From: a virus
Reading direction: 5' to 3' (one strand)
Length of the DNA stretch: 64,000 bases
Virus record (IMG/VR): IMGVR_UViG_3300036795_000116
Span: 5,318 to 69,317 of that record
Below, piece by piece: positions 10,862 to 64,000 of the stretch (the first letter of the stretch is position 1; every line of letters begins with the position of its first letter). Made by a program: the position numbers and the translations under genes. The notes under the pieces are model-generated. The model saw only the letters and a list, made by a program, of their open reading frames with translations. It was not told the origin of the DNA and did no database searches.

Positions 10862-11039
10862 GACGGATTCCTTTACCGCTTGGTCCAGAACTGCTCAACC
10901 CAGGGTTCCGAAGGGTTGCCTCGGCTAAAACGACGGACAGATCCGTCAGCGAAGTAGTAGGCGCGCTCCATGGACGGGTTCGGGTTGGACGAGGCCATGG
11001 TCTCGATGCGGATCGCGTCCTCGACCCCGAGCGGATGGA

Positions 11040-11195: not shown

Positions 11196-11206
11196 GAGGG
11201 GCTCCT

Positions 11207-18264: not shown

Positions 18265-20052
18265 TTAGCTCGCTGCTCGTAGCCAACGACGGTGCTTCCT
18301 GGCCGGTGCGATGGTGAACAGCAAGCCCCAGCCCTTGCCGACCGTCGTGAGCGTGGAGGGCTTATTCGCGTCCCCGCTGATCGTGGCCGACGCTGACTTG
18401 GCGGGGATGGCCTGGCCGGCACTGGATGGCACAATCGCCCAGTCATGTGCCCAAGCTGGCTCATCACATTCCGAGCCGGACGATGCTGCAGTAGTAGCAG
18501 CGGCCGGGTTCACAGTAGTGGTGTCCGCGTGTCCCCCTGTTGCCCAGGTAAGCCCGTCAGAGCCCCCTGTCACCGTGCCATATGTAGTGTTAGTCGAGTT
18601 GGTTTCGTGATACACACACGCAATAGCCAACGCTCCTGCGACACAGTTACTGGCCAGCGCGGCGGTAGGCCCAACTGCGGTAGTACTAGTCGAGCTGGCA
18701 TAGGTAATACCAGTGATGGTGTTAGTGTTATCCGCCGGATTAGACAGGTCTAGCCCGTTGGGCTCCTGGTCGAGAAACTCTGAAATCTGGCTTGACCACT
18801 TCGCACCGGAACACTTGAAGATCTGCGCAGTCATGGTGTCCGTAGGAGTGGACGACGAGTAAGTCAACGTCGGAGCAGTATCTCCAGATGCCCACGGCTT
18901 CACCCAGAGCTGCCACCGTACAGTGTGATCCTGCAAAAGGGGACTAGTTGGATAGGAGCTGTTCGTCCCCACGGCGAAAGGCATATGCGTACTAATGGCC
19001 TTCGTCCATCCGGTGGCAATAGCCGGCGAGCTAGGCGCAGTGGTTGGCTGTGGCGCGGCCGACGTCGCGGCAGAAGTACTCGTAGTGTTGATCCCGCGAC
19101 TAGCTCGCGCGATGCAGAACATCATGTCGCCAGCGGTCAAACCCGTTGGAAGAGCCGGCGTCAACGACGTAAGCGTCGTTCCACCTGTGTTGTGACCGGA
19201 CGTCTTCGTGCCCCACGCCACACCCGAGATCGTGTCCGGGCTATTGGTCCCACGCACCTGAACCGAAGTGGCGGTCTCTCCGTTGTGGCTGGTCCGAAAG
19301 TCGCGGTACCCAGCCTCGCCGTACTCATTCCTATCCGTCTCTAGCCCAAGCGGTGGACTCGGCATTCCGGTCCACTTGGTTTGCAAATACATACCACATT
19401 TGAAATAGGAGTTGGCCCCTGAGGCGACCAGCGCTGGCATGCCTGAATCAGATGAGAGCATGGTATTATCATTGACCGAGCACTCATAGCCGGCGGACCC
19501 AGAGATAATGGCACCAACATGAATCCTGCAGCGGTACCAGGTGTTAAGCTGGGCACTGCTCACGAGCTTAGGGACGCCCGATGAGGTGCCGTTGATCCGC
19601 AGCACGATCTCCTGCTTGCCATCGGTGGCGAACGTGGACGCCGGCTGCCAGGCAATCTCGATGAGGTCGTCACTGTTGTCGTGCATCTGGATCATGACAA
19701 ACGACGGATGCACAGGGGGTAGATGCGTCGGGAAGATCCAGCACTCGACCCAGTGATCCCCGGTCGTAGGGTTGAACGCGCGCAACGTGGTGCCGTCCTG
19801 CTGGCGCTCCCGGAACTCAGAGCGGGGATAGCCGTTGGTGGCGATGGTGTCTACGTCCACGTCCGAGCGCAGCATCATGTGGGAATTGCTGGCGTCGGCG
19901 TAGAGGATGTTGCTGATGCCGGTCGAGGACGCGAGCGTGGACGGAGTGGCCGTCGTAATGCCGGCGCCACTCGCTGTTGAGTAGTCGATCTGGTAGTTGC
20001 TTTTGCCGGCCCCGACGCCGATGTTGCACCAGTCAGCCGCTGGAGTAGCCAC
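18265..20052 (-). CDS. tail-associated polysaccharide lyase family 7 (alginate-lyase-like) depolymerase
   Basis: PL7 motifs YPRSEFRE, IQMHD, YFKCGMYLQ, plus a C-terminal beta domain. Confidence 0.8.
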   Translation of the reverse strand: MATPAADWCNIGVGAGKSNYQIDYSTASGAGITTATPSTLASSTGISNILYADASNSHMMLRSDVDVDTIATNGYPRSEFRERQQDGTTLRAFNPTTGDHWVECWIFPTHLPPVHPSFVMIQMHDNSDDLIEIAWQPASTFATDGKQEIVLRINGTSSGVPKLVSSAQLNTWYRCRIHVGAIISGSAGYECSVNDNTMLSSDSGMPALVASGANSYFKCGMYLQTKWTGMPSPPLGLETDRNEYGEAGYRDFRTSHNGETATSVQVRGTNSPDTISGVAWGTKTSGHNTGGTTLTSLTPALPTGLTAGDMMFCIARASRGINTTSTSAATSAAPQPTTAPSSPAIATGWTKAISTHMPFAVGTNSSYPTSPLLQDHTVRWQLWVKPWASGDTAPTLTYSSSTPTDTMTAQIFKCSGAKWSSQISEFLDQEPNGLDLSNPADNTNTITGITYASSTSTTAVGPTAALASNCVAGALAIACVYHETNSTNTTYGTVTGGSDGLTWATGGHADTTTVNPAAATTAASSGSECDEPAWAHDWAIVPSSAGQAIPAKSASATISGDANKPSTLTTVGKGWGLLFTIAPARKHRRWLRAAS

Positions 20053-47722: not shown

Positions 47723-48421
47723 CTAAAAGTTCGGACTGTGTTGCTGGAATAGCGGCCCAACCCAAGCCACCGCGTAGCACCGACACTTCGGGTGCGCGGC
47801 TCCCGGGTAGACCCCGTCTGGAGGGTTGTCGATCGTGAAGAGGCGGTGATCCAACATCGCGCAGCGCGCCTCAACCTTGCTGTCCTCCTGGGTGCGCCAG
47901 ACCAGGAGTTGGGACTTGAGGGCGTCGACCTTCTTCGCGGCGGCCCGACGTCCCCGACCGGCGGCAACGTGCATGTCGAGATACCGACGTTCCCGCGTCA
48001 TCGCGCTGGTCGAGTTGTCGTCCTCCGCCGCCACGGTCAGCCGCTTAGAGGCCGCCAGCACGTAGAGCGCGCGCATCTGGGGTTCCTCTGAGGCCACCCG
48101 ACGCATCGCGGCCATATGGTCTTGAGCGCTGGGCGCCCCGTGGCGGGTTCGTCCGGTCATCGGCTTCGCCAGCACCATGTGACCCACCTGCTCGGCCACT
48201 TCGCGCTTGATCCCGGTGGCGACCAGCAGCTCGATCAGGTAGTCGGGCAGCTCGGTCGCCTTCACCGCGTCCGGGGAGGCGAACCAGTTCGTCAGCGCGG
48301 TGACCAGGTGCTGATCAGCGACGTACGGGATGCTGTGGTCGACCTTGGTGAGCTGGGCTGACGCCGCCTTCGCCCGAGCGAGGGCCATCAGCGCCCGAAC
48401 GGTGGCCTCATTCGTCATCAC
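47723..48421 (-). CDS. MuF-like minor head protein
   Basis: W.T..D..V...C, PGAAHPKCRC. Confidence 0.8.
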   Translation of the reverse strand: MMTNEATVRALMALARAKAASAQLTKVDHSIPYVADQHLVTALTNWFASPDAVKATELPDYLIELLVATGIKREVAEQVGHMVLAKPMTGRTRHGAPSAQDHMAAMRRVASEEPQMRALYVLAASKRLTVAAEDDNSTSAMTRERRYLDMHVAAGRGRRAAAKKVDALKSQLLVWRTQEDSKVEARCAMLDHRLFTIDNPPDGVYPGAAHPKCRCYAVAWVGPLFQQHSPNF

Positions 48422-50387
48422 GCATCTCGAACAACGCCTTGACCGCGTCGAGGTCCCCAGCGGCGGCCAGGCGGTTCGCGGCCTCCCCGGTCTCGGTGTC
48501 CAGCGCCTCGAACTCGAAGTCCCGCCAGGCGGAGGTGCCCGCGCGCTTGGTCATGAAGGCCGTGAACGCGCGCTGCTCCGCCTTCTTCGCCAGGGCGGGG
48601 GCTTTCGCCGGAGCCTGCTTCGCGGGACGGGGCTTCGCCGGAGCGGACGCCGGCCGAGGGGTCTCCTGCGGGTTCGGCGCCTTCGCGGTCGGTTCGTTGT
48701 TGTAGCCAGGCTGGTTCTGCGCCGCGGAAGGCAGGTTGCCCGGCATCCCGACCGGCTGCACCTCGACGTTGAGCCACGCCGGCCCCGTCGGAGTCGCCAG
48801 GAAGGGCTCATCCGCCTCGGGGAAGGTGTAGCGCGGCAGGTTCAGCTGGTCGCGGCCCTCGTTGAGGGTCTGCAGCGCCGAAGAGATATACCCGGTCAAT
48901 AGGGTCGCCTCTCGCTGCTCGTCCTCATCGTCCAAGCCGTGGAACTGGAACGTGACTTCCGGAGGCATGCCGAGGTAGTGCGTCGAGACCTCGTTAATCA
49001 TGTCCGTCACCCAGGCCGCGGTCGGCTTCGTGGCGCGCGTCAGCTGGGTCTCCTGCTCACCCTCCTGAATCGCGGAGCCGGCCATACCGGAGTTGCCGTT
49101 CGGTACGAAACCGAGCGAAGTCGGCATGACGTCGAATGCCACGCAGATCAGCCTAATCAGGTGCAGGTCGAAGTCGGAAGTGAACTTGGCGTCGTGGTTA
49201 TCCGGGTAGGTAGCGGCGAAGCCAGCGGGCAGGAAGCGAGCGCGATGGCGTTCCGCGTTCTGGCCGGAAAGATCATCGTTGAAGACAGCCTCATACTCCC
49301 TCAGCTGCTCAGGGGTCATGTTGGTGTCCACCGAGACGAGCATCTCCGGCGCGACGCCGGCCGTGTACTCACTGCGCAGCCAGTCGAAGCGCTTGAGCCA
49401 GAGATCGACATCCACCAACGCCTGCTCGACGTTGGAGAAGCCGTAGGGGCCTCGTGACCGACGATTCTTGACCTTATAGATCAGCGTGTCGGTGTTCGCG
49501 TTGACGCCTTCGGGCTTGCCGTAGACAGCGGATATGAATTGCCCGTCGACCTCTTCGTGCGGCGACGCGTCGTATTCTCCGCGTGGGAATCCCCAAAGAA
49601 TTTGTTGATAGGCGGCATACGGCGGCTGCGGTGTCGCTCCGCGATAGTCGAGCAGCGGCTTGATGGTCGTGGCATCCAGCAATTCCAGCGAATGAAGGTC
49701 TCCATTCATCTGAAGGTGCGGGTAGAGCGCGACCGCGTCCAGGACGAGCTGGTCCTCCATCAAGGCGCCGAGCCACTCCGCGAAGTTCCAGCCGTTGATC
49801 TTGTCCGGCTTCGACCACCACCGATGGAGCTTCTCGATCTTGTCGGAAAACTTGTCCTGCAGGTCGCTGGTCACCGTCTGCCGGGAGACGCCGCTGCGCT
49901 GAGCGAGGTGCTTGGCCCGCGCGGCGTCGATGCCGAAGCTCCACTCCAACCCGGTCAGCGCGGCCTTGTTGACCTCGATGCAGGCCCGCATGATGGAGAC
50001 CGTGTCGGCGGTATCGCGCAGCACCGACCAGGGCACCGAGCGGGTCGTCGTCGTCTGAAGGTTCCACGTAGCCGGGTATTCCCAGCGTCGGGGTGCCGGG
50101 CGCCCGGAGCGCAGCGGCTGATCCAGCGGCGCCGGGTAGAGCGGGATCCCCGGTCCGAAGCTGTTCTCGGCGTAGGGGTCGCGGGTCAGGGCGGCGGCCG
50201 GGTTCGGACGCGCGTTGCGCTGCTGCAGTTGCTGCAGGTACTGGGTGGTGATCTGGGTGGTCTGGGTACCCGGGGGCAGCTGGAGGGCCTTGTTCAGCTC
50301 TTCGCGGATGATCCCCCGAACGTCAGCTGCCGGAGCCGGATCAGGCGCGATGGGATAGCTCTGACGCGGCCGACGACGCTTTGCCAC
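48408..50387 (-). CDS. portal protein
   Basis: ED.LVLDA, L...TIKP, YGFS.VEQ, I..AF.V.P..LG, NEGR..LNL; GTG start with GGGGG RBS. Confidence 0.92.
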   Translation of the reverse strand: MAKRRRPRQSYPIAPDPAPAADVRGIIREELNKALQLPPGTQTTQITTQYLQQLQQRNARPNPAAALTRDPYAENSFGPGIPLYPAPLDQPLRSGRPAPRRWEYPATWNLQTTTTRSVPWSVLRDTADTVSIMRACIEVNKAALTGLEWSFGIDAARAKHLAQRSGVSRQTVTSDLQDKFSDKIEKLHRWWSKPDKINGWNFAEWLGALMEDQLVLDAVALYPHLQMNGDLHSLELLDATTIKPLLDYRGATPQPPYAAYQQILWGFPRGEYDASPHEEVDGQFISAVYGKPEGVNANTDTLIYKVKNRRSRGPYGFSNVEQALVDVDLWLKRFDWLRSEYTAGVAPEMLVSVDTNMTPEQLREYEAVFNDDLSGQNAERHRARFLPAGFAATYPDNHDAKFTSDFDLHLIRLICVAFDVMPTSLGFVPNGNSGMAGSAIQEGEQETQLTRATKPTAAWVTDMINEVSTHYLGMPPEVTFQFHGLDDEDEQREATLLTGYISSALQTLNEGRDQLNLPRYTFPEADEPFLATPTGPAWLNVEVQPVGMPGNLPSAAQNQPGYNNEPTAKAPNPQETPRPASAPAKPRPAKQAPAKAPALAKKAEQRAFTAFMTKRAGTSAWRDFEFEALDTETGEAANRLAAAGDLDAVKALFEMRDDE

Positions 50388-50469
50388 GGACTCACCCCCT
50401 TCCGAGTTGTCATGGCGAGGCGGCGGAGATCGCAGCCCTTGCAGGTGCCGAGCGGGCACCGTCGTAATT

Positions 50470-50949: not shown

Positions 50950-52377
50950 TTACGCCGCCTCAGAAAGCTTAGTGCCGCACTTCTTACAATGAGTCGAGCG
51001 GCGAAGGTTGGGAAGTTCACAGTCCGCGTTGGGACACTGCTTGCTGATAGCGGACAAATAAGCCAGGGCGCTCGTGCCCATATTCAGCTCAGTCGCCGCC
51101 CAGACCATAGCGTCGAGGTTGTCCGGGCTCTCGGGAGAGTCGGTGGTGAACGTGCACATCTGGTCTTCTAGATGCGGCTGAGAGCCAACGATATGGCCGC
51201 GTCCCTGTTCCCAGAGCGCCGCGATCGGTTCCGCGCGCACCAACTTGCCTCGGGTCGCGCGTACCGACTTATAAGCGACACTCGGGTCAATGGTCCGAAT
51301 GACCTGCTCAATATAGTCGCCACCATTGTTGACCTCACCGATTACTCGGTCGGCGTGCCAATTGTGGTAGGCCTTCACGGCCTTACTCATCGCGTTGCGC
51401 GGCGTCCCCCGGGTGGTGCAGTCCTCCAGGATGTAGAAGTGGCCATCCGCGCTACGCCCCGCGACCACGATGCCGGTCGAGTCGGCCTTCTCCCCGCTAG
51501 TGACCGCCGGGTCGACCCCGACCACCACCCGCACCATCTGCGGGGCCTTATCCACCCGGGTGGCGTCAATGACATCCCGGCTCCACAAGGCGCCTTCGAT
51601 ATCATCGAGCAATTCCCCTTCCAGCTCTTGTCGGCCGAGCCGGGTGCCTTCGTGGGTAGCCCGTAGGTTCGCCAGCGCCACCCGAGAGAGGTTCGCGGCG
51701 TTATCCCAGGTAGACCCCCGGACGACCGCGACCGAGCTGTCCTCATTGGAGCGCTTGAGCAGATCCTTGAGGAACTTCACCGGCCGCGGCGTCGTCGTGA
51801 TCAGCATCCGGGGGTTGACCCCGATCCGCAGCGCCGGCATCAGCGCCTCATTGAAGAGCTGATCGGCGTGTTGCATCGCGGCGGCCTCATCGACCCAGGC
51901 GCCGGAAAGGTTGGTGCCACGCAGCCGGTCCGGGCGGTCCGCCGAATACCCATAAATCTTGCTGCCGTTGGTCAAGCGCACGATCAGATCGGAGGAGTTC
52001 TTGCTTTCCAGCTCGCCGGGCAACATCGCCTGCAGCAGGCCGGATTCGCCCTCGATACAGACCTTGCCGCAGTCTCGCCAGGTGGGGGAGACGACCGCCC
52101 ATTCGGTGCCGGGGTTGCGGGCGGCCTGCTCGGCGAGCCATTCCGCGCCCGTGCGGGTCTTGCCGAAACCACGCCCGGCCAGAATGAGCCAGGTGCTCCA
52201 GTCACCCTCGGGTGGGAGCTGATTCGCGCGCGCCTGCTGGTGCCAGGGCCGGGGCCGCGGTGGCGCGAGGATCGCCATCTGACGGTTCAGCCAGATCTGC
52301 TGTTCCTGCAGTTTCGCCAGCAGCTGGAGCTTGTCCATGGGGGCTTCGACGAGGGTCTCTTTGCCGATCTGGGCCAT
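50950..52377 (-). CDS. terL: terminase large subunit
   Basis: Walker A AGRGFGKT, Walker B WVDEAA, TTTP, GVDPA, SPDNLDA; C-terminal Cys finger. Confidence 0.96.
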   Translation of the reverse strand: MAQIGKETLVEAPMDKLQLLAKLQEQQIWLNRQMAILAPPRPRPWHQQARANQLPPEGDWSTWLILAGRGFGKTRTGAEWLAEQAARNPGTEWAVVSPTWRDCGKVCIEGESGLLQAMLPGELESKNSSDLIVRLTNGSKIYGYSADRPDRLRGTNLSGAWVDEAAAMQHADQLFNEALMPALRIGVNPRMLITTTPRPVKFLKDLLKRSNEDSSVAVVRGSTWDNAANLSRVALANLRATHEGTRLGRQELEGELLDDIEGALWSRDVIDATRVDKAPQMVRVVVGVDPAVTSGEKADSTGIVVAGRSADGHFYILEDCTTRGTPRNAMSKAVKAYHNWHADRVIGEVNNGGDYIEQVIRTIDPSVAYKSVRATRGKLVRAEPIAALWEQGRGHIVGSQPHLEDQMCTFTTDSPESPDNLDAMVWAATELNMGTSALAYLSAISKQCPNADCELPNLRRSTHCKKCGTKLSEAA

Positions 52378-52458
52378 CGTCACCACCTCCATGTGTAGTT
52401 AGGTCGTTGCGGGGGAACCCTCTTCGTGCTCGCCCTTACCCCGAGTTGAGGAGTCACC

Positions 52459-52768: not shown

Positions 52769-53488
52769 TTAGCTGAGCGTGATCTTGTGTTGCTCGCGCA
52801 GCACGATGCCCCGGATCGTCATCGGGGAGGACCAGCGCGCCGCTCGGCGAGGTTTGATGCCCTCGGCGTCGAGCTGGGCGCCGATCTCCCGGAAGCTCAG
52901 CCCCGAGGCGTGCAGGGCCAGGATCCGAACGACCGCCAGACGCTCTCCGTCGTGAGGCCCGGCGTCGCGCTCGCGTCCGGTCCCGGTGCCGGTGGTGCCG
53001 AATTTGTACTGTCCCACGGCGTGTTTCCCTTCGGCTGCCTTGATCCGGCGACCGTCGCGCAGGCGCTTCGTGATCATCGCGCGCTCCAGCTGCTGGAAGA
53101 CACCCTGCATCTGGCGCATCGCGGTGCGCATCGGGTCGTCGGGGTCATCCTTGAGGATCTCACCCTGATCGGCGCCGAACACCTTCCGGTTCATGCCCCA
53201 GATGTGCGCGAGGATCGCCTCTTGGATGGTCAGCTCACGCGCGAGACGGCCGAGGTTCGCCACCACCAGACCGTCGATCTTCGGTGAGGCGGCCAGCTCG
53301 TCGAGGACTTCGACCATCTTCGGCCGGGCCGCGAAGCCCGACTTGCCGGTGATGTCGTCGGTCTTGACGTCCACGATCTGGTGTTTGCCGTACTTCGCCC
53401 ACTTCTTGATGTCGGCGAGCTGGGCAGCGGGCCCGTAGGCATCCAGCTGGGGCGTCGACGAGACCCGGAGGTAGGCGATGAGCTTCAT
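52769..53488 (-). CDS. serine recombinase (resolvase domain plus short recombinase-like tail)
   Basis: YLRVSS..Q (catalytic Ser), D..TG...RP, RLAR, LER..I..R, G.S.REI...L...G. Confidence 0.92.
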   Translation of the reverse strand: MKLIAYLRVSSTPQLDAYGPAAQLADIKKWAKYGKHQIVDVKTDDITGKSGFAARPKMVEVLDELAASPKIDGLVVANLGRLARELTIQEAILAHIWGMNRKVFGADQGEILKDDPDDPMRTAMRQMQGVFQQLERAMITKRLRDGRRIKAAEGKHAVGQYKFGTTGTGTGRERDAGPHDGERLAVVRILALHASGLSFREIGAQLDAEGIKPRRAARWSSPMTIRGIVLREQHKITLS

Positions 53489-54456: not shown

Positions 54457-54743
54457 GTCTTGGGTCGGCCGCAGTTCCCGCAGGCTTCGAAGTCCGCTGG
54501 CCGATGCTTCCAGGGGCGCCTGAACTCTTCTTCACCAGGCTGCCGACGCCAAACCCCGCGCCAGCGATGCCGGCCCACCAGGCAGAACGTGTAGGCCATC
54601 AGCTCGGGCTTACGACGGTAACGCCACGTCAGCGCCAGGTGGTTGCGGGTGCCGCCGTACAGCGACCTGCAGTCCGGGGTGCCAGGCCAGTGATCGAGCG
54701 GGTGAAACTGACTGAAATCGAGCTTGCGGGGTGGTTCGCTCAA
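54453..54743 (-). CDS. hypothetical protein with C..GRH.W..CxxC motif
   Basis: ORF track; Cys motif. Confidence 0.55.
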   Translation of the reverse strand: MSEPPRKLDFSQFHPLDHWPGTPDCRSLYGGTRNHLALTWRYRRKPELMAYTFCLVGRHRWRGVWRRQPGEEEFRRPWKHRPADFEACGNCGRPKT

Positions 54744-54769
54744 AGTGGGTGGCCCGTGTCGGGGGCTAG

Positions 54770-54885
54770 TCGGTGCGGGGAGTGGCCGGACCCTGCTCCT
54801 CGGTAGTGAACAGGGGCCGGCTCACCCTCGGTGCGGGGAGTGGCCGGACCCTGCTCGCTGATAACAAGCAGGGGCCAGCTCACCC
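54770..54885. repeat. 2 x 58-nt tandem hairpin repeat with variable loop
   Basis: TCGGTGCGGGGAGTGGCCGGACCCTGCTC-N12-CAGGGGCCRGCTCACCC twice. Confidence 0.85.
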
Positions 54886-55282
54886 CTTGGAGACCACTCT
54901 CCTTGACGAAGAGGCCGCCAGCGTATCAGTCGAGGAGTTGGCCCTGCTCCTGCTTCGGGGGTTTCAGCAGCTCGGCCAGCATCTCCCGCTGCACCTCGCT
55001 GAGCCCACAGCCTTGCTCTAGCGACGGCCCGCCCCGGGGACCCAGGATGAAGATGCCCTTCGCGGACGCGGATTCGATGAGGTCGCAACCTTCGCAGCAG
55101 TTATGACGATTCATGATCAACTTTCACTCCCGCAAAAATTTTTGCCGCGAAAAAATCGCTCTGACCAGGGGCTTTCGCCCACACTAGCGCGAGCGCCAAT
55201 TTCGAGCGGCGCTTACCATGATCAACTTCTCGCTCCGGAAAAAATCTCGCCCACACAAACGCTGGTGAACCCGTGCCCCAAA

Positions 55283-55430
55283 TGTCACACCTGTGTGACA
55301 CTTAGGGGGGGATGTGTCACAGTTGATCATCACCCGTTTGGTCGTCACCCACTTGGCCTAGTTCACCCACATGCGAGTTGATCATCACCCATATGCGTCA
55401 CCCGTTTGGCGGTACCCATCACCCGTTTGC
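55283..55430. repeat. palindrome plus TCACCC iteron-like cluster
   Basis: TGTCACAC-CT-GTGTGACA (55283-55300); TCACCC at 55330, 55345, 55363, 55385, 55398, 55419; AGTTGATCATCACCC twice. Confidence 0.75.
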
Positions 55431-56047
55431 GGCGCTAGACTGGCCGTAGGCCAGTTCGACAAGATCAACAACGAGAGGAGAGGTGGGCCGTGCGCGGGCG
55501 TGAGCCTGCTCACTTTCCGGGAAAGCCCCCGCGGGAGAGTATGCCCAAAGGACGTCGCTACCCGGCCCCGTGCTGTCAGTCGCGGGATGATGATCTCACC
55601 GCCGAGTAAAGAGAGGCTTAGCCTCCGCGCGGCTGGTAGCTCAGGCTACCCCGCGTGACTCCCCGGAGTCCGTTGAGCGTCCGGAACGCCGCGACGCGAG
55701 CCCACCTGCAACGGTGGCACGGTGCCGGGTCGACCCTAACTCGGGCTGTCCACGGAGACGTGGGCGATAGGTGATCCAGATCTCATCCATGCCTCAATGA
55801 TCCAGACGGGTAGATCAAATACGTTCAAGATCCAAATACGTTTGAAGATCAACTATGCCACGTGCGAGAGGATGATGATCATGAAGACTACGTCACTACA
55901 GATTGTCCATCGCCGTGGCTCCCAGCTATGGGATCATGCGCAGAGTAGTCACTCTGCCGGGCCGGTCACGGCCACCCTAGCGAAACGGTCACGTCGGCAA
56001 CGGCGAGCCGCTCGGGTGAGTACCCCCCGATAGCAAGATCACCCGTT

Positions 56048-56088
56048 GGTCACGGGCATGATCCTTTACTGTGATCATGCCCGTGACC
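56048..56088 (-). terminator. 16-bp inverted repeat downstream of 56127-56660
   Basis: GGTCACGGGCATGATC/GATCATGCCCGTGACC. Confidence 0.7.
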
Positions 56089-56126
56089 TGCGGTGTATGC
56101 GAATCGACAGATACATGTACAGCGCG

Positions 56127-56660
56127 CTAGACACCTAGCGCAGGCAGCTTGACTCCAGAAGCGGCCGCTTGCGCCTCTAGTTGCGTCTGTAGGTCACGAA
56201 TGGCTTGGTCGACAGTGGATTCGGTGATGACCGAAACCTCCTGTCGCACGGGCGCATTCAGCCCTAGCAAGCGTGCCCGCTGATCGGAGATCTTCAACAT
56301 CCGGTCGATAGCCCAGTGTTGATTGGTTGATCCACTTGCCAGGCATTGCTGCCAGATAGCGGCCTGTAGTTGGTCTAGTCGATCTAGTTCAACCTGTCGA
56401 GCATCGTCGATCGACTCTCGCGGGTACTCACGCATGTACACCATGAAACTCTTGTGAGCATGCGAGCTATCCGAGTAGCCAAGGGCACGCGCGATAGCGT
56501 CCCAGCTCACACCAGCACGGCGCATATCTACGGCGCGCTGATCGCGCTCTCGCCTGGCAATCACCTCGGGTGCGGACGGTGAGTCGATCCGCCGCGGCCG
56601 TCGCTTACCACTCTGCGGAGTCGGAAGCGCAGTTGCGCGGTTAGGCCCCTGATCAGGCAC
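56127..56660 (-). CDS. terminase small subunit-like HTH protein
   Basis: AVDMRRAGVSWDAIARALGY HTH; ELDRLDQLQ..W; AIDR.LKI..RARLLGL.AP pattern typical of actinophage TerS. Confidence 0.75.
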   Translation of the reverse strand: MPDQGPNRATALPTPQSGKRRPRRIDSPSAPEVIARRERDQRAVDMRRAGVSWDAIARALGYSDSSHAHKSFMVYMREYPRESIDDARQVELDRLDQLQAAIWQQCLASGSTNQHWAIDRMLKISDQRARLLGLNAPVRQEVSVITESTVDQAIRDLQTQLEAQAAASGVKLPALGV

Positions 56661-56754
56661 GTTGTGACCTCCCTAAGGGTTGTAGGTCGCACCCAAGATT
56701 TCCGGACACACTGCCCGGATAGCACGATCAGCACCTACGAACGGAAAAACGATC

Positions 56755-57029
56755 ATGACCTCTGCAACTAGCTCGCGGACGTTCTACAGCGACGATGACT
56801 CGATCCCGGTCACCGACGCCGCGGTGGATACGTACAACGTCAGTCAGGCCAGGCCCGATGAGGATGACATTCGGCTAGGCGTACTCGGCCAGGTCGAAAC
56901 CGCGCATGCTGAGTTCTACCGGAACCACTGATGATCACCGACAGAGAAAATAGGTACATGATCGCGGGCAGTTTCGCCCTGTTGATCTTGATCTGGGTGA
57001 TCTTGTTTAGCTTCTGTCCTTGGTACTGA
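56755..57029 (+). other. first cassette: two tiny ORFs (56755-56931; 56931-57029 membrane peptide)
   Basis: GGAAAAACGATCATG start; TGATG coupling; second stop falls in repeat copy 1. Confidence 0.65.
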
Positions 57030-57110
57030 GAGCGCTAGCAGAGCGGCTGGTGGTGAGTCCAGCCGTTCGATAGTCCACTCAGGACTACCCGCACAACGTT
57101 AGGAACGATC

Positions 57111-57329
57111 ATGCCAAGTATCAGCGCTAGCTTGCACGTGTACGCCGGTGACGCGGTTGCGGTGCGCGGCTCGACAGTTGACTCAGACAGGGTCACGGTG
57201 CAAGTCGGTGAATACGGTGAAGTGAGCAGCCATATCTACCTGGATCGAACGTCCGCCGTCCGAATCGCACAAAGCATTCTGGCGTTCTACGAAATGCCAG
57301 GTGGAGTGACCTACAGCGACTCTGAGTGA
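57111..57329 (+). CDS. cassette hypothetical protein
   Basis: Bounded by repeats 1 and 2. Confidence 0.8.
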   Translation: MPSISASLHVYAGDAVAVRGSTVDSDRVTVQVGEYGEVSSHIYLDRTSAVRIAQSILAFYEMPGGVTYSDSE

Positions 57330-57407
57330 GCTAGTCGACCAGCCGGAATGCGAACGGCTGGTCTGTAGTCCACTCAGGACTAGCCCCACCAATGAACGGA
57401 CACGATC

Positions 57408-57826
57408 ATGCTTGAAACGACGCTGGAAACAATCGACGTTCGTGACTTTGCGGTCACGGTATGGATCATGACAGGAGATCTCACCGGCGCTCTGATCACC
57501 GAGGCGCGTGGTTGGCTAAGCGACTGCTACTGGGACGACATGGAAGCGGACGAAATCGCCGAACTGTCGAGCATCACCGTTCAGCGCGCGATCGCACAGC
57601 ACTACGACGGCGGTATCGGCCAGTTCGTATCGGACGGTAGTTGATCATGGACCCCGACGCAAACCTCGCCGAGCAACTCGAAATCGCACGTGAAATGCAG
57701 GACCTAGACGATGTTGACTTGCCGGTTAGTCAGGATGACGCACAACGCCTGGCAGAGCTAGTCATCGCGTTGAACGAATGGCTAGCCAAGGGTGGTTACC
57801 CGCCGAAAGCCTGGCAACGTAACTGA
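57408..57826 (+). other. cassette with two acidic ORFs (57408-57644; 57647-57826)
   Basis: Between repeats 2 and 3; MDPDANL..L..W...GG..P..W pattern in the second. Confidence 0.75.
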
Positions 57827-57907
57827 GTGATCTAGCAGAGCGGCTGGTGGTGAGTCCAGCCGTTCGATAGTCCACTCAGGACTAACCGCACAACGTTAGG
57901 AACGATC

Positions 57908-58174
57908 ATGCATGTCTCACATGAACTTGACGTCTGCTCTGATTGCCGGCAGCTGATTGCCAACGGAGACATTGAGGACGGTACCGATACCGGAGAGCGC
58001 GTCGCCGCGGCGCAAGTACAGATTTGGGGTCCACTCGCCTGGCACATGGTGCTGAGTGGGACCGAGGACGAACCGCGATTCATGACCTCGGAATGCGACG
58101 GTTGCGGCGAGACTGCTCACGGTGATCGGTGGTACGCGTCCATTATCGAGAATGGCGATTCTGTCATCGCCTGA
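57908..58174 (+). CDS. cassette protein, CxxC..CxxC
   Basis: CSDC and CDGC..GDR; between repeats 3 and 4. Confidence 0.8.
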   Translation: MHVSHELDVCSDCRQLIANGDIEDGTDTGERVAAAQVQIWGPLAWHMVLSGTEDEPRFMTSECDGCGETAHGDRWYASIIENGDSVIA

Positions 58175-58257
58175 CTGAGAGAGCTAGCAGAGCGGCCGGT
58201 GGTGAGTCCGACCGTTCGATAGTCCACTCAGGACTAAGCCAACGTAGGGAAACGATC

Positions 58258-58515
58258 ATGCGTAGCGTGGAATTCAAGATCAAAGGCAACCCGGACACGT
58301 ACCTGCTACCCGTGGCCGACGATGTCACCGTATACAGCGCGATGACAGAGGTACTGTCGATCATGGGTCACGAGTGGGCGGACGTGATGCCCGGTCACGA
58401 CTTCAAGATCATCGACCCTAGCCCGTGCCAGTTCTGCTCACAAGCTTCGGGCCCCGACGCGTACATGCGTAAACCCATATGTGCGAGTTGCCTGGCCGCA
58501 CGTGAGACTGACTGA
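58258..58515 (+). CDS. cassette protein, C-terminal CxxC..CxxC
   Basis: Start at GATCATG after repeat 4. Confidence 0.8.
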   Translation: MRSVEFKIKGNPDTYLLPVADDVTVYSAMTEVLSIMGHEWADVMPGHDFKIIDPSPCQFCSQASGPDAYMRKPICASCLAARETD

Positions 58516-58598
58516 GTGATCTAGCAGAGCGGCCGGTGGTGAGTCCGGCCGTTCGATAGTCCACTCAGGACTAACCGCACAACTGTTAGGAAACGATC

Positions 58599-59120
58599 AT
58601 GAGTGAGCCGCTCTACACATTCCCTGCACTCACAGAGGCCGACATCACGGCGGTTAAGGGTGCACTCACAACGCTCACGGATTCCAACCTGGCCAACCTG
58701 GCCACACTCGCCACCGGTGAATCGCCACTCTATGGCCTGATTGGTGAGGAGATGGAACGCCGCGGCTACGAAGATCGAAAGCTCGCCGATGAGGCGAGAG
58801 ACCGTCGCCGCGAGCTGTACGCGGGTCGCGCACTATTGCGCGGTGAAATCAGACTGCAATGGGACAGCGGCGACATCAAGGCAAGCGCGCTGTCCCCCGA
58901 ATTCGATCTGTGCGAGGTGATGACCTTTCTAGAGATCGACGTACCGCCCGAGGTCGGATACTCGCAGGGCTGGATAGGTGAGCCTGACAGCGAATGGTCA
59001 CAAGATCTCATCCTCTGGCACGCGGGTGATCTGATCGACGGTGACGACATGATCTATTGGGTGCGCGTGCTCGATAGGTATATGGATGTGTGCGTGCGCG
59101 GCACGGAGCGCGACTACTGA
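58599..59120 (+). CDS. cassette acidic hypothetical protein
   Basis: Between repeats 5 and 6. Confidence 0.8.
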   Translation: MSEPLYTFPALTEADITAVKGALTTLTDSNLANLATLATGESPLYGLIGEEMERRGYEDRKLADEARDRRRELYAGRALLRGEIRLQWDSGDIKASALSPEFDLCEVMTFLEIDVPPEVGYSQGWIGEPDSEWSQDLILWHAGDLIDGDDMIYWVRVLDRYMDVCVRGTERDY

Positions 59121-59201
59121 GAGAGCTAGCAGAGCGGCCGGTGGTGAGTCCGGCCGTTCGATAGTCCACTCAGGACTAAGCCCCAGCCAAGGGAATTGAT
59201 C

Positions 59202-59594
59202 ATGACAACTGCACTGCAAGAGTCTGTCCTGATGACCGAGCTACGCGCGGTAGGTGGGTTTACGTTCAACCCGCATACGTCGCGGCTGGTCGACTATGGC
59301 AGCGCCACCGGATACATGATCGCGGTTCCGGGTACCGAACGCATCCTCGGATTCGGCGGTATGAGTTCCGCTGAATTCGATCAGGCGTTCTATTCGGCCG
59401 TACGTGATGCCGAACTGTCCGATTACACATTCGTAGGTGGCTGGTATTCCAGCGATCGGAATGTGTACATGATCGAACTGTCAGAGCTGCACGACGTCAC
59501 GCGTCGCCAGGCGGTACGCCTCGGAATCGAGCGCGGGCAGGAAGCAATTTTCGACATGCGCGGCGAGGTCATCAATCTGAAAGTGAGTGTCTGA
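59202..59594 (+). CDS. conserved phage protein (GGFT..GYM..GGW..Q.AIFD family)
   Basis: Recurrent phage motif set; function not established. Confidence 0.8.
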   Translation: MTTALQESVLMTELRAVGGFTFNPHTSRLVDYGSATGYMIAVPGTERILGFGGMSSAEFDQAFYSAVRDAELSDYTFVGGWYSSDRNVYMIELSELHDVTRRQAVRLGIERGQEAIFDMRGEVINLKVSV

Positions 59595-59920
59595 TGTTCC
59601 TGAATGAGTACGAAATCGACGACTACCGTCACCAATACCGCGATCATGCAGTGCTCGGGCCCGCTACCGCGACGCTGTCCGCGCTTGTGGAGGCAGTGAA
59701 CGCGAATTCGGACGGGTGGCCCTACTGGCAGAAGCCCAACCGCGCCGCGCGCAAGCTACAGGAATTCATCCGGGGTGACTGGCCTGCCAGCCGCTTTGAT
59801 GACGAGCGCAAGGACGCGACACCCGCGCTACTCCGGCAGGCCTACGGACCCTTGCGAGCATTCCGGACCCGTTGGGGTGTCCAGTTCATGATCACCGAGG
59901 TATCAGGCAAGGGGAAATGA
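59594..59920 (+). CDS. cassette protein (NSDGWPYW motif)
   Basis: TGATG coupling. Confidence 0.8.
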   Translation: MFLNEYEIDDYRHQYRDHAVLGPATATLSALVEAVNANSDGWPYWQKPNRAARKLQEFIRGDWPASRFDDERKDATPALLRQAYGPLRAFRTRWGVQFMITEVSGKGK

Positions 59921-60120
59921 TCATGACCGTAACCAACGTCAAGTTTCAGCTACACATCAACACTGGCAACGCCGCGGTTGCAGACGAGCCGTTCATCGCC
60001 GTCGCCGAACAATTGGAGGCAGCGGCGGCCAGACTTCGTGACTACTTCGCAGACGGCACGATGCGGGACGCCAATGGCCAACCAATCGGCAATTGGTACC
60101 TCAGCACTCTCTCTGAGTGA
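59917..60120 (+). CDS. cassette protein (I.T.NAA..D.NG..IG.W motif)
   Basis: ATGA overlap; stop in repeat 7. Confidence 0.8.
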   Translation: MIMTVTNVKFQLHINTGNAAVADEPFIAVAEQLEAAAARLRDYFADGTMRDANGQPIGNWYLSTLSE

Positions 60121-60196
60121 GCTAGCAGAGCTACCGGTGGTGAGTCCGGTAGTTCAATAGTCCACTCAGGACTAGCCCCAGCCACGTTAGGACCGA

Positions 60197-60811
60197 ATGA
60201 TGATCCCAACAAAAGCGGACGATGAGACGCAAGAACTCTATGTCCGCAATATCGTCACGCGGTGGAATGCCGCGACGCCCGAGCAGATCGCAGTCGGGCG
60301 CAATTGGTACTACTGCGCCAATGAACTAGCGCAGAAGATCGCGCCCACCACCCGCGTAGGTGCCGGAGTGCTCGCGGCGTTGTCCCCTCAGAAGTCCTGG
60401 CAGGCCAACGTCAAGATCGCAAAGGCAACGTTCGCCTCGGGTGCCGCACGCGGCCAGGTAGGCAACGCCTGCAAGAAAGCGGATGACATCCTGTCCGGTA
60501 AAGATCCACTCACGGTGCTGCCCAAGGGTAGTAAGACGTGGCACTTTTACCGGTGCATCGTCGATCCGTCAGACTCCGAAGCGGTAGTGATCGACCGTCA
60601 CGCGCACGACATCGCGGCGGATGAGATCTACGGCGCGGCAGACCGAGGACTCAGCAATCCGAATAGGTACCACACACTCGCCGAAGCCTACCGGCGAGCC
60701 GCTGAACTACTCGGCGAGATCCCGAGTGTTGTGCAGGCGGTCACCTGGACAGTGCAGGTTGACGCAACCGAGCATCTCCCGTATCGCGCGGGCAGGCGCC
60801 CGAAAGCGTAA
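60197..60811 (+). CDS. HhH-GPD DNA-glycosylase-like phage protein (DUF7178-like)
   Basis: G..WY, AALSP..W..N, K...FY, VVIDRHA, QAVTW. Confidence 0.65.
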   Translation: MMIPTKADDETQELYVRNIVTRWNAATPEQIAVGRNWYYCANELAQKIAPTTRVGAGVLAALSPQKSWQANVKIAKATFASGAARGQVGNACKKADDILSGKDPLTVLPKGSKTWHFYRCIVDPSDSEAVVIDRHAHDIAADEIYGAADRGLSNPNRYHTLAEAYRRAAELLGEIPSVVQAVTWTVQVDATEHLPYRAGRRPKA

Positions 60812-60925
60812 GATAGGAGGCTCGGACATGCCCGGATTCTGAATCACACAGCGGCCGGTAGGGAATGCGACCCTATCGAGCCGCGGGCGATTCAGCCCAC
60901 TAGCCCCAGCCAAGTTAGGAACATC

Positions 60926-61306
60926 ATGTCTGAAACCGAATTCGACCTGACCGTGTTCACCGAGGAAGACATCGCACGATGGGACAGTGTGGATCTTCGC
61001 CGGTGGGCGGCCAACCTGGACCTGTACAACAGGAAGACCGACGTTGCAACATTCCGACTCTCGTCCGAGGTGATCGGTACCGCGGGCGCACTGACCGCGA
61101 TCGACAAGCTAGTCAACGTGCTCAAAGTTGCCTACGCGGACCGCGAGCCCGACGTGACGAACGCCTACGGCAGTCAGATCGAAGTCAAGGTCTGGGAGAC
61201 CGACGAGGGGCTGCGGACCAGCTTGAAGTACAGGCTGCGCCGTGACCTCGAAGCCAAGGTGAAGGAGGAAATCAGCAACGAATTCGGCACCTACGCGACT
61301 ACCTGA
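60926..61306 (+). CDS. cassette hypothetical protein
   Basis: Between repeats 8 and 9. Confidence 0.8.
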   Translation: MSETEFDLTVFTEEDIARWDSVDLRRWAANLDLYNRKTDVATFRLSSEVIGTAGALTAIDKLVNVLKVAYADREPDVTNAYGSQIEVKVWETDEGLRTSLKYRLRRDLEAKVKEEISNEFGTYATT

Positions 61307-61389
61307 GTGATCTAGCAGAGCGGCCAGTGGTGAGTCTGGCCGTTCGATAGTCCACTCAGGACTAGCCCCAGCCACGTTAGGAAACGATC

Positions 61390-62108
61390 ATGGGCGAGAA
61401 CGATTTCGAACTACCGGACTGTGAGTGCAATGCGTGCTCACCAGACCCCGATGCGATCACGGTGCCCGTAGGGCTCTACATGATCAAGAACCGCAACGGC
61501 GCGGAAGAGCGCTATCACATCGGCGAGTACGGCTCGGTCACAGAGGTTTTGGGTGATCAATTCCAGCTGGTCACCGTCGAGCTGGATCGAGAGTTGATCT
61601 TGCTCCGGATCGCCACCGCGCTCGGGCGCGCCTGATGAGCCGCAAGCCAAAGGTCGGGACCGCTTATCCAGCGGACCGCTACGCGGCACCCGAGGAAAGG
61701 ATCATGGAGGTCAGCCACGAACTGGGTGGCTGTCTCATCTCGGTCAGGCCAGTGAACGACCGACTGTTGATCGAGATCTACCGGGCCGATGACACGATCG
61801 ACGTCAGGGGGCCAGGCGGACGTCAGGAAGCCCAACGGGCAACACTCGCCTGGACAGGTGACAACCCCGACGAGCCGCTCGATCAGAACGCGGACTCGCT
61901 CGCGGTGCCGCACGGATTCTGGGCCATCGGGATCGACACCATGACCAACATGTGGACCGTCGATCTCTATGAGATCCCGAACATCGAGACGCCCGGCGTC
62001 GTGATCGACGCGCTCGCACTGCCCGACCAGCCCACCGAGGCACTAGCCAAGGACGCCGCCCAGCGGACGGAGGAATGGCTGCTGAAGAAGATCATGCGCG
62101 CTCACTGA
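61390..62108 (+). other. cassette with two ORFs (61390-61635; 61635-62108)
   Basis: TGATG coupling; between repeats 9 and 10. Confidence 0.75.
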
Positions 62109-62188
62109 GTGACCTAGCAGAGCGGCCGGTGGTGAGTCCGGCCGTTCGATAGTCCACTCAGGACATGGAACAACGTTAGGAAACGATC

Positions 62189-62616
62189 ATGAAGTACAAC
62201 GTACTGACACGAGTCGTCTCGATCGTCGAGGCCGACTCACCAGCGGAAGCGCGCACCAAGGCGGAAGATCAAATTACCCGTCTGCTCGGCGACCCTGACG
62301 AGAACCTGGCCGAGGTCTACCGAGAGAAGGACCGCCCCGGCGATGTTCAGGAAGTGGATTGATGAAGATCACCCAGACGTTCTACTGCCGTGGCAACGAT
62401 TCCGGGCCCTACGTAGACGCGCACTACTACAGCGATTGGGAGACCGCAAAGGAAGCGGCCGATGAGAACGGAGAGTGTGTGTATGAGGTAACCGGAACGC
62501 TTGACCCGGATACAGCAAAACTGCTTGACGATGTTCAGGAAGTGGAGGCGTATTGCAACCACGACCCGGCGGCAGTAGTCAACGGGCGTTGTGAGTGCGG
62601 TGCCGTAATCAACTGA
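62189..62616 (+). other. cassette with two ORFs (62189-62362; 62362-62616)
   Basis: VEADS..EA motif; TGATG coupling; between repeats 10 and 11. Confidence 0.75.
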
Positions 62617-62702
62617 GTGACCTAGCAGAGCGGCCGGTGGTGAGTCCGGCCGTTCGATAGTCCACTCAGGACTAGCCCCAGCCCATCGAGAGAAGTGATC
62701 AT

Positions 62703-63863
62703 GTGAAGGAGTACCCACTGCCAGACCGGGACCCCGGTGAAGATCTACTGAATGAGACCCGCGCATTCGTGCGGCGATTCTGGGCGCCCCCGAGTGAGGT
62801 TGCTCTGGACGCGTTCACGTTGTGGCTGGTCCACACCCACGCGGTGAATGATGACCGCCTAGTGTTCGAAACCTCCCCGCGTATGGGGCTGTTCTCGATC
62901 GGTCCGGCGTCGGGCAAGTCCACCGCGCTGGAGATGTTGGAATTGCTGTGTGGTCGCGGCAAGCGCATTGCTGACCCGACCGCGCCCGCATTGATGGGGC
63001 TGCTCAGTCACGAGCGAGCAACAATCCTCATTGATGAGCTGGACACCCTGATGGGTTCCGGTGCAGGTGGGCGTTCCACCCGGACGATCATGCTTGAGGG
63101 TTACTCCGAAGGCGGCACGATCGCACGCGGTACGCAGGTGCGCGGCTACACGGAAGTTTCGTGTTTCGCGCCTATGGCGTTCGCGGGTATGCGGCAGAAC
63201 TTCATCTCTAACCCGAGGCTCGATGCACTACGTACCCGGACAATCATGCTGCTCTGTAAGCCGCGTGGTCCTGGTCAGGTCGTCGAGAGCTACCGTCGCC
63301 GGCTGCACTCTGGTCAGGCGCGGGCGCTGAATGCGGCCCTGGTCAAGTGGGGCTCACGCAATGCCAACACGCTGTCTGACTGCTGGCCGGAACCCCCGGA
63401 CGGTATCGAAGATCGCGCGGCGGAACTGTGGGAGCCACTGCTCGCCATTGGTGAGGTCGTCGGCGGTACGTGGGCTGAACGAGCCCGCAACGCCTGCCGG
63501 GTAATCGCGCTCGGCGAACCGGAAGAAGACGATGAGGAGCCCGACACTCCGGTGGAGATGTTGCTGGCCGATATGGGCCAGATCTTCATGGGTGAAGAGC
63601 GGTTGGCAACACGAACCATCGTGGAGCGACTGCTACTGCTACCCGGCTCAGCATGGAAGCGGTTCCCGAACATGATCGCGGCGGGTAAGGAGATTGCCGC
63701 GATGTTGGAGCCGCGCGGTGTCGCGCCCCGACCGGTCAAGCTCGACGGCACCACGGTCCGGGGTTATGACAGGGCAGATCTCGAAGCGGCCGGCATGCCT
63801 GTGCTGGACAACATCACGGAAGGAGGCCCGTCCAGCGAAGAGCTAGCGGAACTCCCGATCTGA
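62703..63863 (+). CDS. DUF3631-type P-loop replication protein
   Basis: LW..HTH, TSPR, Walker A GPASGKST, Walker B TILIDE, DRAAELWEPLLAI, RGY.R.DL. Confidence 0.85.
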   Translation: MKEYPLPDRDPGEDLLNETRAFVRRFWAPPSEVALDAFTLWLVHTHAVNDDRLVFETSPRMGLFSIGPASGKSTALEMLELLCGRGKRIADPTAPALMGLLSHERATILIDELDTLMGSGAGGRSTRTIMLEGYSEGGTIARGTQVRGYTEVSCFAPMAFAGMRQNFISNPRLDALRTRTIMLLCKPRGPGQVVESYRRRLHSGQARALNAALVKWGSRNANTLSDCWPEPPDGIEDRAAELWEPLLAIGEVVGGTWAERARNACRVIALGEPEEDDEEPDTPVEMLLADMGQIFMGEERLATRTIVERLLLLPGSAWKRFPNMIAAGKEIAAMLEPRGVAPRPVKLDGTTVRGYDRADLEAAGMPVLDNITEGGPSSEELAELPI

Positions 63864-63874
63864 GACCAAGATCA

Positions 63875-63947
63875 GGTTACAGGTCGCGGAGAGTAACCAC
63901 CGTTTGTGCTGGTCAGAGCGTTGATCCAGTTACGGGTTACGGGTTAC
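63875..63947. repeat. GGTTAC/GTAACC repeats downstream of DUF3631 gene
   Basis: GGTTAC 63875, GTAACC 63893, GTTACGGGTTACGGGTTAC 63929-63947. Confidence 0.65.
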
Positions 63948-64000
63948 GTTTGCGTTAGTCGCGCGCGATACCAACTGCATGTACAGTTCACTGCACAACG

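Follow-up and report, generated by a model that had tools for sequence, protein, structure and literature searches.

A portable stop-to-start intercistronic RNA module with two mutually exclusive predicted folds in an operon of an uncultured soil phage

The stretch of DNA analysed here, hereafter the window, comprises 64,000 nucleotides (positions 5,318 to 69,317) of the IMG/VR virus record IMGVR_UViG_3300036795_000116. It forms the last 64 kb of a 69-kb linear record, the completeness of which is estimated at 66%, and the source is an uncultured high-GC tailed soil phage. We focus on the element at positions 57823-57910, which runs from the stop codon of one small gene to the start codon of the next and is one of 11 copies in the same operon. 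The element is a portable stop-to-start intercistronic RNA module of an early or accessory operon, and it can adopt two mutually exclusive folds, A and B. Its parts are listed below, where ORF stands for open reading frame, MFE for minimum free energy and SD for Shine-Dalgarno sequence. Every fold and opening energy given in this text is a prediction, and a look-up of RNA runs listed none that contains this stretch.

57647-57826, + strand: upstream ORF of 59 amino acids, whose TGA stop (57824-57826) lies within the 5' basal strand of the hairpin
57823-57879, + strand: fold A, a 57-nt hairpin, supported by the MFE, by pair counts and by the covariance model R1 (105.9 bits)
57823-57829 with 57873-57879, + strand: closing helix of fold A, CTGAGTG/CACTCAG
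57832-57834 with 57868-57870, + strand: middle helix of fold A, CTA/TAG
57838-57847 with 57856-57865, + strand: inner helix of fold A
57848-57855, + strand: apical loop of fold A, TGGTGAGT
57868-57884, + strand: fold B, a 17-nt hairpin TAGTCC-ACTCA-GGACTA (tail fold -7.4 kcal/mol, p 0.007 against shuffles)
57880-57907, + strand: C/A-rich leader
57882-57886, 57895-57899, 57898-57901 and 57904-57907, + strand: CTAAC, GTTAG, the SD AGGA and GATC, respectively, in the leader
57908-58174, + strand: downstream ORF of 88 amino acids, starting at the module ATG (57908-57910)

The MFE structure of 57815-57915 consists of the 7+3+10-bp hairpin of fold A and a CUAAC/GUUAG helix in the leader (-38.6 kcal/mol, z -3.84, equalled by 0 of 200 shuffles). 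Fold A amounts to about two turns of interrupted double helix with internal loops of 2x2 and 3x2 nucleotides, and it continues directly into GACTA(A/G)CC. Fold B draws on the same 3' strands that fold A uses in its middle and closing helices. On reading the sequence again, we found every pairing described in an initial annotation at its stated place.

The operon that contains the module (56755-63863, + strand) has 18 genes, most of them small, and the copies are arranged in it as follows.

57026-62705, + strand: module array, 11 copies
57026, 57322, 57823, 58175, 58512, 59117, 60113, 60839, 61303, 62105 and 62613, + strand: starts of the 11 modules

Modules occupy every gap of the operon that is longer than 2 nt (11/11), and at the remaining six junctions the genes overlap as TGATG or TGATCATG. 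In the window modules, the C that precedes the stop and the start codon are 83-90 nt apart. The core 17-mer TAGTCCACTCAGGACTA occurs in nine exact copies and one copy with two mismatches, all on the + strand, against 0.07 expected. The leaders consist of TAGCCCCAGCC or TAACCGCACAAC, followed by GTTAGGAAACGATC. Module 11 ends in an ATG TGA start-stop at 62701-62706, and the DUF3631 gene begins there at an overlapping GTG (62703).

To describe the family, a covariance model (R1) was built from 10 of the window copies only; these score 90-113 bits and copy 8, the divergent one, scores 23.6 bits. Scanning metagenome contigs with the 17-mer gave 29 loci, of which two, L036 and L020, contain modules by the covariance model. 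The same scan gave no match in viral contigs and nine loci in genome contigs, all of which are single matches; one of these, in L039, is inside a coding region. L036 is a 1.2-kb metagenomic contig with three modules of 96-102 bits, and L020 is a 2.9-kb metagenomic contig with three divergent modules of 23.6-27.3 bits. In L020, four tandem units of about 33 nt (ccccgtacgccacgtgaggggaggcgaggcaacg) are located at 1-130, upstream of its early operon. A further metagenomic contig, L009, was obtained by a search with the DUF3631 protein, its own copy being 79-82% identical to that of the window; the search also gave two distant loci (L054 and L055) without such repeats. A large protein set contained 32 DUF3631 homologues, and protein-alignment scans of the metagenome and genome contigs for DUF3631 relatives found none. 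The four elements of L009 share the architecture of the modules but not their sequence; they are built from TGAGTGAGTGA, CTGTC and a stem that varies and has 12-14 bp, followed by GGGT-nCTC-ACCC and, as leader, CACACA. These are classed by architecture, the R1 scores being marginal (11.9 and 8.7 bits). Apart from L009's own contig, a scan for the L009-type motif gave only chance matches in coding regions.

The family also includes mycobacteriophages. Cluster M phages carry conserved repeats between many genes of the rightmost region (PMC7953290), and stem-loops upstream of the repeats CR3/CR4 have been attributed to Pope et al. (2014, J Virol 88:2461, as cited in PMC7953290). Judging from the sequences, the modules correspond to these uncharacterised stem-loops in the phages Bongo and GenevaB15. 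R1 matched intergenic gaps over model positions 1-90 with 28.4 (E 9e-6), 24.4 and 17.9 bits in Bongo and with 17.6 and 16.1 bits in GenevaB15, where the E-values should be taken as rough. As in the window, the stop codon is in the 5' arm (CTGAACA, CTGAATC, CTGAGTC, CTAGACA or CTAAGC), and is followed by an inner hairpin that is GC-rich and variable, by the complementary 3' arm with a small hairpin overlapping it, and by a C/A-rich leader with an SD and a start codon. The stop-to-start gaps (76-94 nt in GenevaB15 and 78-115 nt in Bongo) likewise separate small co-oriented non-structural genes, and the genomes share a tRNA array and a small-gene operon opposed to the structural genes. However, cluster M has no nucleotide similarity to the window phage, and its leader motif ACACACGGAGAAGGGAA, which we took as CR3/CR4 from the Bongo and GenevaB15 genomes rather than from a published consensus, is not found in the window leaders. 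The L009 leader GCACACACGGAGGGCAAC resembles this motif. In addition, the B hairpin is invariant in sequence in the window, whereas it varies from copy to copy in cluster M. In several modules of GenevaB15 (L057, region 10711-11267) and Bongo (L058), the CR3-like SD motif that follows the hairpin is also present as its 5' strand (CTGAACACGGAGAAGGG...), so that one SD-like copy is buried and another is free.

Fold A is the MFE structure of 18 of the 20 elements folded with their context, and of all 21 hairpins folded alone. When 17 modules are aligned, 88.6% of the cells of fold A are paired, against 22-40% with slid partners, and 10 double-sided pair changes are counted, against 4.4 +/- 1.4 in shuffles (a number reached by 0 of 500). 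The closing helix is supported by covariation at pair 5-58 (GC in 15 sequences, AU in 2) and pair 7-56 (GC in 13, CG in 1, unpaired in 3); pair 6-57 is broken in three sequences. The sense strand folds better than the antisense strand in 17 of 21 hairpins.

Fold B is 92% paired in the alignable set, and its support comes from variants that are out of register. Its stems are GGGC/GCCC in copy 8 and CGGGU/ACCCG in L009, and those of cluster M include GGUCU/AGACC, UGCUC/GAGCA, UGGUC/GACCA and UGCUGC/GCAGCA among many. Compared with 300 shuffles, the 26-nt tail past the inner hairpin has the better fold (p<=0.05) in 26 of 39 elements, and at least 12 stem sequences are represented; the 13 misses include five gaps of other types and two hairpins clipped by the automatic cut. 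By chance, a hairpin centred on the 3' arm has at least 4 bp in 6-10% of trials and at least 6 bp in 0.3-0.45%. Copy 8, which begins at 60839, carries CTGAATC/GATTCAG together with GGGC-GATTCA-GCCC, as the initial annotation had noted. The central claim of that annotation, that the element encodes two mutually exclusive folds, is upheld: the folds are real and conserved across the family, and the substitutions indicate that both are kept by compensatory change, including in cluster M mycobacteriophages.

Two further pairings proposed at the outset are less general. The complementarity between the ACTCA loop of fold B and TGAGT of the apical loop is present in 9 of the 11 window copies, but not in copies 2 and 8, the L036 element e2, L020 or L009, and a pseudoknot between the two loops was rejected for this reason. 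The CTA(A/G)C/GTTAG helix, proposed to cover the ribosome binding site (RBS) of the next gene, does form in the MFE structure of 57815-57915, but 68.8% of its cells are paired, against 92-95% in the other helices, and it is missing from copies 2, 4, 6, 10 and 11. A self-cleaving pseudoknotted RNA, which had been suggested as an alternative, finds no support, since the loop complementarity is not conserved and there is no Rfam match even at E<=5. More specifically, no non-tRNA Rfam family reaches its gathering score in the window, no match, ribozymes included, occurs at E<=5 in 56600-63000, and searches of L009, L020 and L036 at E<=1 gave only tRNAs and one chance lncRNA match. We also considered the apical loop GGUGA as a tether to 16S rRNA, but it is not conserved in the relatives.

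The stop codon used is the first TGA of CTGAGTGA in eight copies, the second TGA in copies 2 and 7, and a TGA immediately before the element in copy 4. The second TGA is also used by the L036 element e3, and the L036 homologue of the 59-amino-acid ORF has the same type of ending. In total, 16 of the 17 elements of the window, L036 and L020 have the stop in or at the 5' arm. Among 43 elements drawn from six sources, 30 have a stop whose three bases all pair with a distant triplet (UGA/UCA in 26, UAG/CUA in 3 and UAA/UUA in 1), where the first TGA was scored for copies 2 and 7 and for L036 e3 although their ORFs use the second. The 3' arm thus tracks the identity of the stop codon, and within cluster M the stop covaries with its partner in all three forms (UGA/UCA, UAG/CUA, UAA/UUA). 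Translational bypass and a SECIS element were rejected as explanations, because the last sense codons vary between copies and an in-frame TAG follows 9 nt past the module TGA.

Copy 8 differs in that the DUF7178 gene before it (60197-60811) ends with TAA (60809-60811), 27 nt ahead of the copy. The following feature is found between them.

60815-60820 and 60828-60842, + strand: AGGAGG and, after 7 nt, ATG CCC GGA TTC TGA, a 4-codon ORF with its stop in the 5' arm of copy 8

This mini-ORF suggests that termination at the base of the hairpin matters, as had been proposed. Genes in about 30 Streptomyces phages share 66-74% nucleotide identity with the DUF7178 gene, which is the operon's sole nucleotide match to isolates. 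It is also the sole operon gene ending with TAA, the others ending with TGA, which suggests that it was recently acquired. The possibility that the mini-ORF was brought along from the donor was rejected, the region downstream of the DUF7178 gene in Streptomyces phage Andris being unrelated.

The effect of a terminating ribosome was modelled by blocking the 16 nt under a ribosome on the stop codon (the masked state), and access to the next gene was expressed as the energy required to open 21 nt around the SD and the start codon. Masking brings fold B into the MFE structure in all 11 window copies (with 4 bp in copy 10). It is therefore plausible in this model that a ribosome flips fold A to fold B, as initially proposed, but the second half of that proposal, that the flip frees the next RBS, is not borne out. 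The opening energy in the free state minus that in the masked state is +0.85 kcal/mol on average in the 11 window copies (range -0.01 to 1.7), -0.12 +/- 1.7 kcal/mol in 20 elements, and -0.82 +/- 1.26 kcal/mol in 14 cluster M elements; that is, the predicted difference is small, zero or negative. In the latter two sets, 34 elements in all, an open RBS is predicted with and without masking. A penalty placed on the pairs of fold B alone in the masked state adds 1.05 kcal/mol to the mean opening energy, with a rise of more than 0.5 in 19 of 30 elements and a drop of more than 0.5 in 4 of 30. In the window copies, the opening energy is 4.4 kcal/mol in the B state, 5.3 in the free state and 5.8 without B. 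Since penalising B makes the RBS harder to open, we read B as parking the released strand.

The hairpin and the leader are separable. At 1325-1363 of L020 there is a leader that lacks a hairpin, in the window a leader follows a promoter-like site at 904-915, and L009 has a hairpin without a downstream gene at 5160-5260 (element c). The AGGA/GGA...GATC-ATG design of the RBS also occurs at the first operon gene, upstream of which there is no module. GATCATG occurs 33 times on the + strand of the window, against 2.3 expected, and 13 times on the - strand; the + strand sites include 6137, 55881, 56755, 57111, 57408, 57647, 57908, 58258, 58599, 59202, 59923, 61390 and 62189. It forms the start of 11 operon genes and of two other + strand genes, with or without an upstream module. 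With the 3' tail of 16S rRNA, which we take to be GAUCACCUCCUUUCU, AGGA-N3-GAUC would pair in register, which would make it a split, extended SD. A promoter-like sequence with a TTGACA box, GTGTAGTGC(A/C)CTTGACACAGTG, is found before + strand genes in two copies, at 851-899 and 6055-6103. The former is followed by TAAGCCCCAGCC, the leader of modules 6, 7, 8, 9 and 11. The window contains 12 occurrences of GCCCCAGCC, where 1.5 would be expected.

These results bear directly on the idea of a relay switch, in which fold A, together with the CTAAC/GTTAG helix, would keep the next RBS poorly accessible or keep ribosomes away from it, and termination would flip the RNA to fold B and license the next start. 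Its best arguments are the strict placement of the stop and the mini-ORF of copy 8, which restores the geometry where the gene itself ends too early. Moreover, the other junctions of the operon are overlaps with the classic layout of translational coupling, the hairpin brings the stop and the leader together across a narrow range of stop-to-start distances, and the RBS of the window copies is most open in the B state. Against this stand the RBS predicted to be open already in fold A, the patchy anti-RBS helix, the identical RBS design of the first operon gene, and L009 element c, where there is no downstream gene to license. In addition, structure just past the stop correlated negatively with coupling in E. 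coli screens, as these are summarised in a review (PMC12548453). We consider the relay unlikely. If it did hold, the array would be translated as a chain. A variant of the idea, a prokaryotic counterpart of ribosome shunting or a termination-dependent relay in which the ribosome is passed across compacted RNA to the next SD, is likewise doubtful; in that case, swappable cassettes would be translated as one relay, and the 4-codon ORF before copy 8 would serve only to feed a ribosome in.

The same logic could operate on transcription. In an attenuator, fold A would pause or terminate RNA polymerase unless a ribosome holds the 5' arm, with fold B acting as the antiterminator; exclusive folds chosen by the position of the ribosome are in fact the classical principle of attenuation (outlined also in the review PMC12548453). 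However, no copy has a U-tract past fold A, and no terminator-like site was detected on the + strand of 54500-64000, both of the sites detected there being on the - strand. This explanation is extremely improbable.

Fold A may alternatively be a substrate for a host RNase III-type enzyme, by analogy with the early mRNA of phage T7. After cleavage, the upstream product would be capped at its 3' end by the inner hairpin, and the downstream product at its 5' end by fold B. As in T7, a 20-bp helix with two internal loops is present in every gap of the early operon, and processing would account for the location of B at the exact 5' edge of the downstream product and for its persistence in L009 element c, where there is no RBS. 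Another L009 gap (4377-4412) contains, in place of the usual hairpin, a tRNA-like minihelix in which an acceptor-like stem is stacked on a T-arm with a UUCGACU loop, and this could be a processing signal or an attP core. However, the minihelix has no ARAGORN or Rfam call and folds no better than shuffles (z -0.35), and processing leaves the pairing of the stop codon and the mini-ORF unexplained. We regard a T7-like processing signal as quite unlikely.

Outside the operon, the window has the organisation of a tailed phage genome, with the structural genes on the - strand and 14 tRNA genes. The following genes are relevant here.

33577-39408, - strand: tape measure gene
48408-50459, - strand: portal gene, with about 30% identity to the portal of the best isolate
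50950-52392, - strand: large terminase gene
56127-56660, divergent from the operon: weak helix-turn-helix (HTH) gene

Megablast against the phage collection gave no nucleotide match to isolated phages, and with blastn the matches to isolates were limited to Streptomyces phages over one gene, DUF7178. A resolvase-type serine recombinase of 239 amino acids (52769-53488, - strand) adjoins the large terminase gene, may act in inversion, resolution or integration, and has no evident link to the array; it is the sole recombinase in a Pfam scan of 20 window ORFs, in a record that is about 66% complete. An integron attC array, for comparison, would involve an IntI-type tyrosine recombinase and R/L boxes at the crossover. 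A tail-region protein with an alginate lyase domain (18265-20052, - strand, E 1e-14) is possibly a capsule or exopolysaccharide depolymerase. The non-coding region 55100-56100 is rich in GATC/TGATCA, with 35-nt repeats at 55112-55146 and 55217-55251 and recurring 'gttgatcatcaccc' words; it is a candidate origin or immunity control region, and L009 3280-3420 resembles it. A tandem pair of 58-nt copies, 84% identical and each with a potential GC-rich hairpin, is located at 54770-54885.

Comparison of the relatives indicates that the modules are joints at which gene cassettes have been swapped. L036 has the gene order g5, new gene, g11, g8, where g5, g11 and g8 are homologues of window genes (identity 66-83% in amino acids and 70-77% in nucleotides). 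The modules of L036 and of the window share 93.5-95.2% identity, against 70-77% for the flanking genes. Soil metagenome contigs from one study, with at least 80% identity, join different operon genes at modules (57314>62613, 59506>58509, 59506>60113 and 62191>59595), and in all of four contig runs module 11 is replaced by 84 other letters. A MITE-like insertion was rejected because there are no consistent target duplications.

This raises the question of whether the module acts as DNA. Its 17-bp palindrome might be a stoperator/CIR-like operator or part of a phage promoter, and the repeats might exist mainly as recombination sites for cassette exchange, like the PeSLs of T4-type phages. Nine of the 11 copies conserve the palindrome perfectly, its half-sites are spaced by one helical turn, the divergent HTH gene adjoins the operon, and the gene order of the relatives breaks exactly at the modules. 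PeSLs, as they are described in PMC2839356, share the layout of stop, stem-loop, SD and start and mediate shuffling. On the other hand, the palindrome, with up to three mismatches allowed, occurs nowhere outside the array in the 69-kb record, including the promoter region of the operon, and a scan of 54500-64000 gave 0 sigma-70 promoter-like sites, where shuffles have 3.2 +/- 1.7. The palindrome covaries with the distant 5' arm, and G-U pairs are found on the sense strand. In Bongo, the B stems all differ within one genome, which points to conservation of structure rather than of a protein code. Because the stems differ between copies of a single phage, a sequence-specific DNA operator for the whole family is unlikely, and recombination would be expected as a by-product at any 90-bp repeat. 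A DNA-level function as a whole seems very unlikely.

The reading that we favour, with a probability of roughly 0.4, is that the module is a translation-tolerant punctuation or insulator element rather than an on-switch. At rest, hairpin A would close off the upstream cistron and shield its 3' side, and it may also act as a double-strand processing site, while the standard leader and RBS would stay open. A ribosome arriving at the stop would melt the two basal helices but not the inner hairpin, which begins 12 nt past the stop. The released 3' strand would then be parked in hairpin B and so would not invade the next RBS, and on departure of the ribosome the more stable fold A would re-form. 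Downstream initiation would thus be largely independent of upstream translation, and this independence would make gene cassettes exchangeable.

Several observations weigh against the insulator interpretation. The mini-ORF and the strict stop placement point to a requirement for a terminating ribosome, and an insulator explains this only indirectly, as the avoidance of naked RNA before the hairpin. In GenevaB15, the stop is 2-9 nt upstream of the arm in three of nine gaps. The buffering by B is of the order of 1 kcal/mol, and 11 of 30 elements show no such effect or the opposite one. Among the alignable sequences, fold B is conserved but shows neither covariation nor double-sided changes, and for L009 element c and the three hairpins of L020 the antisense strand gives the better fold.

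Whichever reading holds, the modules would represent an uncatalogued class of cis-acting phage RNA. Since Bongo and its relatives grow on M. smegmatis, the insulator, relay and processing models can be distinguished there. A further potential use of the module is as a portable part in the construction of actinobacterial operons.

Among known systems, the PeSLs are similar in layout: they are cassettes of about 100 bp in T4-type phages that extend from a stop through a stem-loop to an SD and a start (Arbiol 2010, PMC2839356; Comeau 2014, PMC4122927). Like the modules, they are described there as clustered among small accessory genes and as joints of insertion, deletion and shuffling. However, PeSLs carry a consensus sigma-70 promoter and a terminator stem-loop, whereas the modules have no detectable promoter or U-tract terminator, and the PeSL description, by which the two were compared, contains neither exclusive folds nor stop pairing in the portions considered. 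Multi-copy operators of the stoperator/CIR type differ in another respect, in that the same sequence is present at an early promoter and at intergenic sites, which is not the case for the modules in the 69-kb record.

The early mRNA of T7 has RNase III processing hairpins between early genes, which are interrupted and about 20 bp long. These sites resemble the modules in being homologous to one another and in occupying the gaps of an early operon. To our knowledge, neither stop-codon pairing nor a conserved alternative 3' hairpin occurs at the T7 sites.

In the examples of coupling by RNA unfolding summarised in PMC12548453, namely rpmI-rplT, f1 genes VII/IX and MS2 coat/lysis, the ribosome finishing the upstream gene remodels an intercistronic structure, as we propose for the modules. 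The downstream RBS is sequestered in those systems, whereas that of the modules is predicted to be open. The same review covers the MIRUs of mycobacteria, which are portable repeats between cistrons and maintain the expression of the gene that follows. According to its summary they act via a bridging small ORF, which the modules lack, their TGA being followed by the in-frame TAG.

Cluster K mycobacteriophages have SAS/ESAS repeats, in which an SD-containing repeat is located a few bases before the starts of non-structural genes (Pope 2011, PMC3203893). Similarities to the modules are that an inverted repeat often lies ahead of this motif and that the motif sometimes includes the upstream stop; its function is given there as unknown. 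In that account, the departures between ESAS arms speak against RNA pairing and the authors favour DNA-binding sites, whereas the arms of the modules covary. For the CR3/CR4-type repeats of cluster M, we found no literature description of stop-codon pairing or alternative folds, in a search in which Pope et al. 2014 was represented by what PMC7953290 says of it. The intergenic repeats of clusters K and M have been on record since 2011-2014 without a function, and a concrete RNA model can now be offered for them. What the present analysis adds is that the exclusive folds and the stop pairing are family-wide and covarying, and that the design extends to unrelated soil phages.

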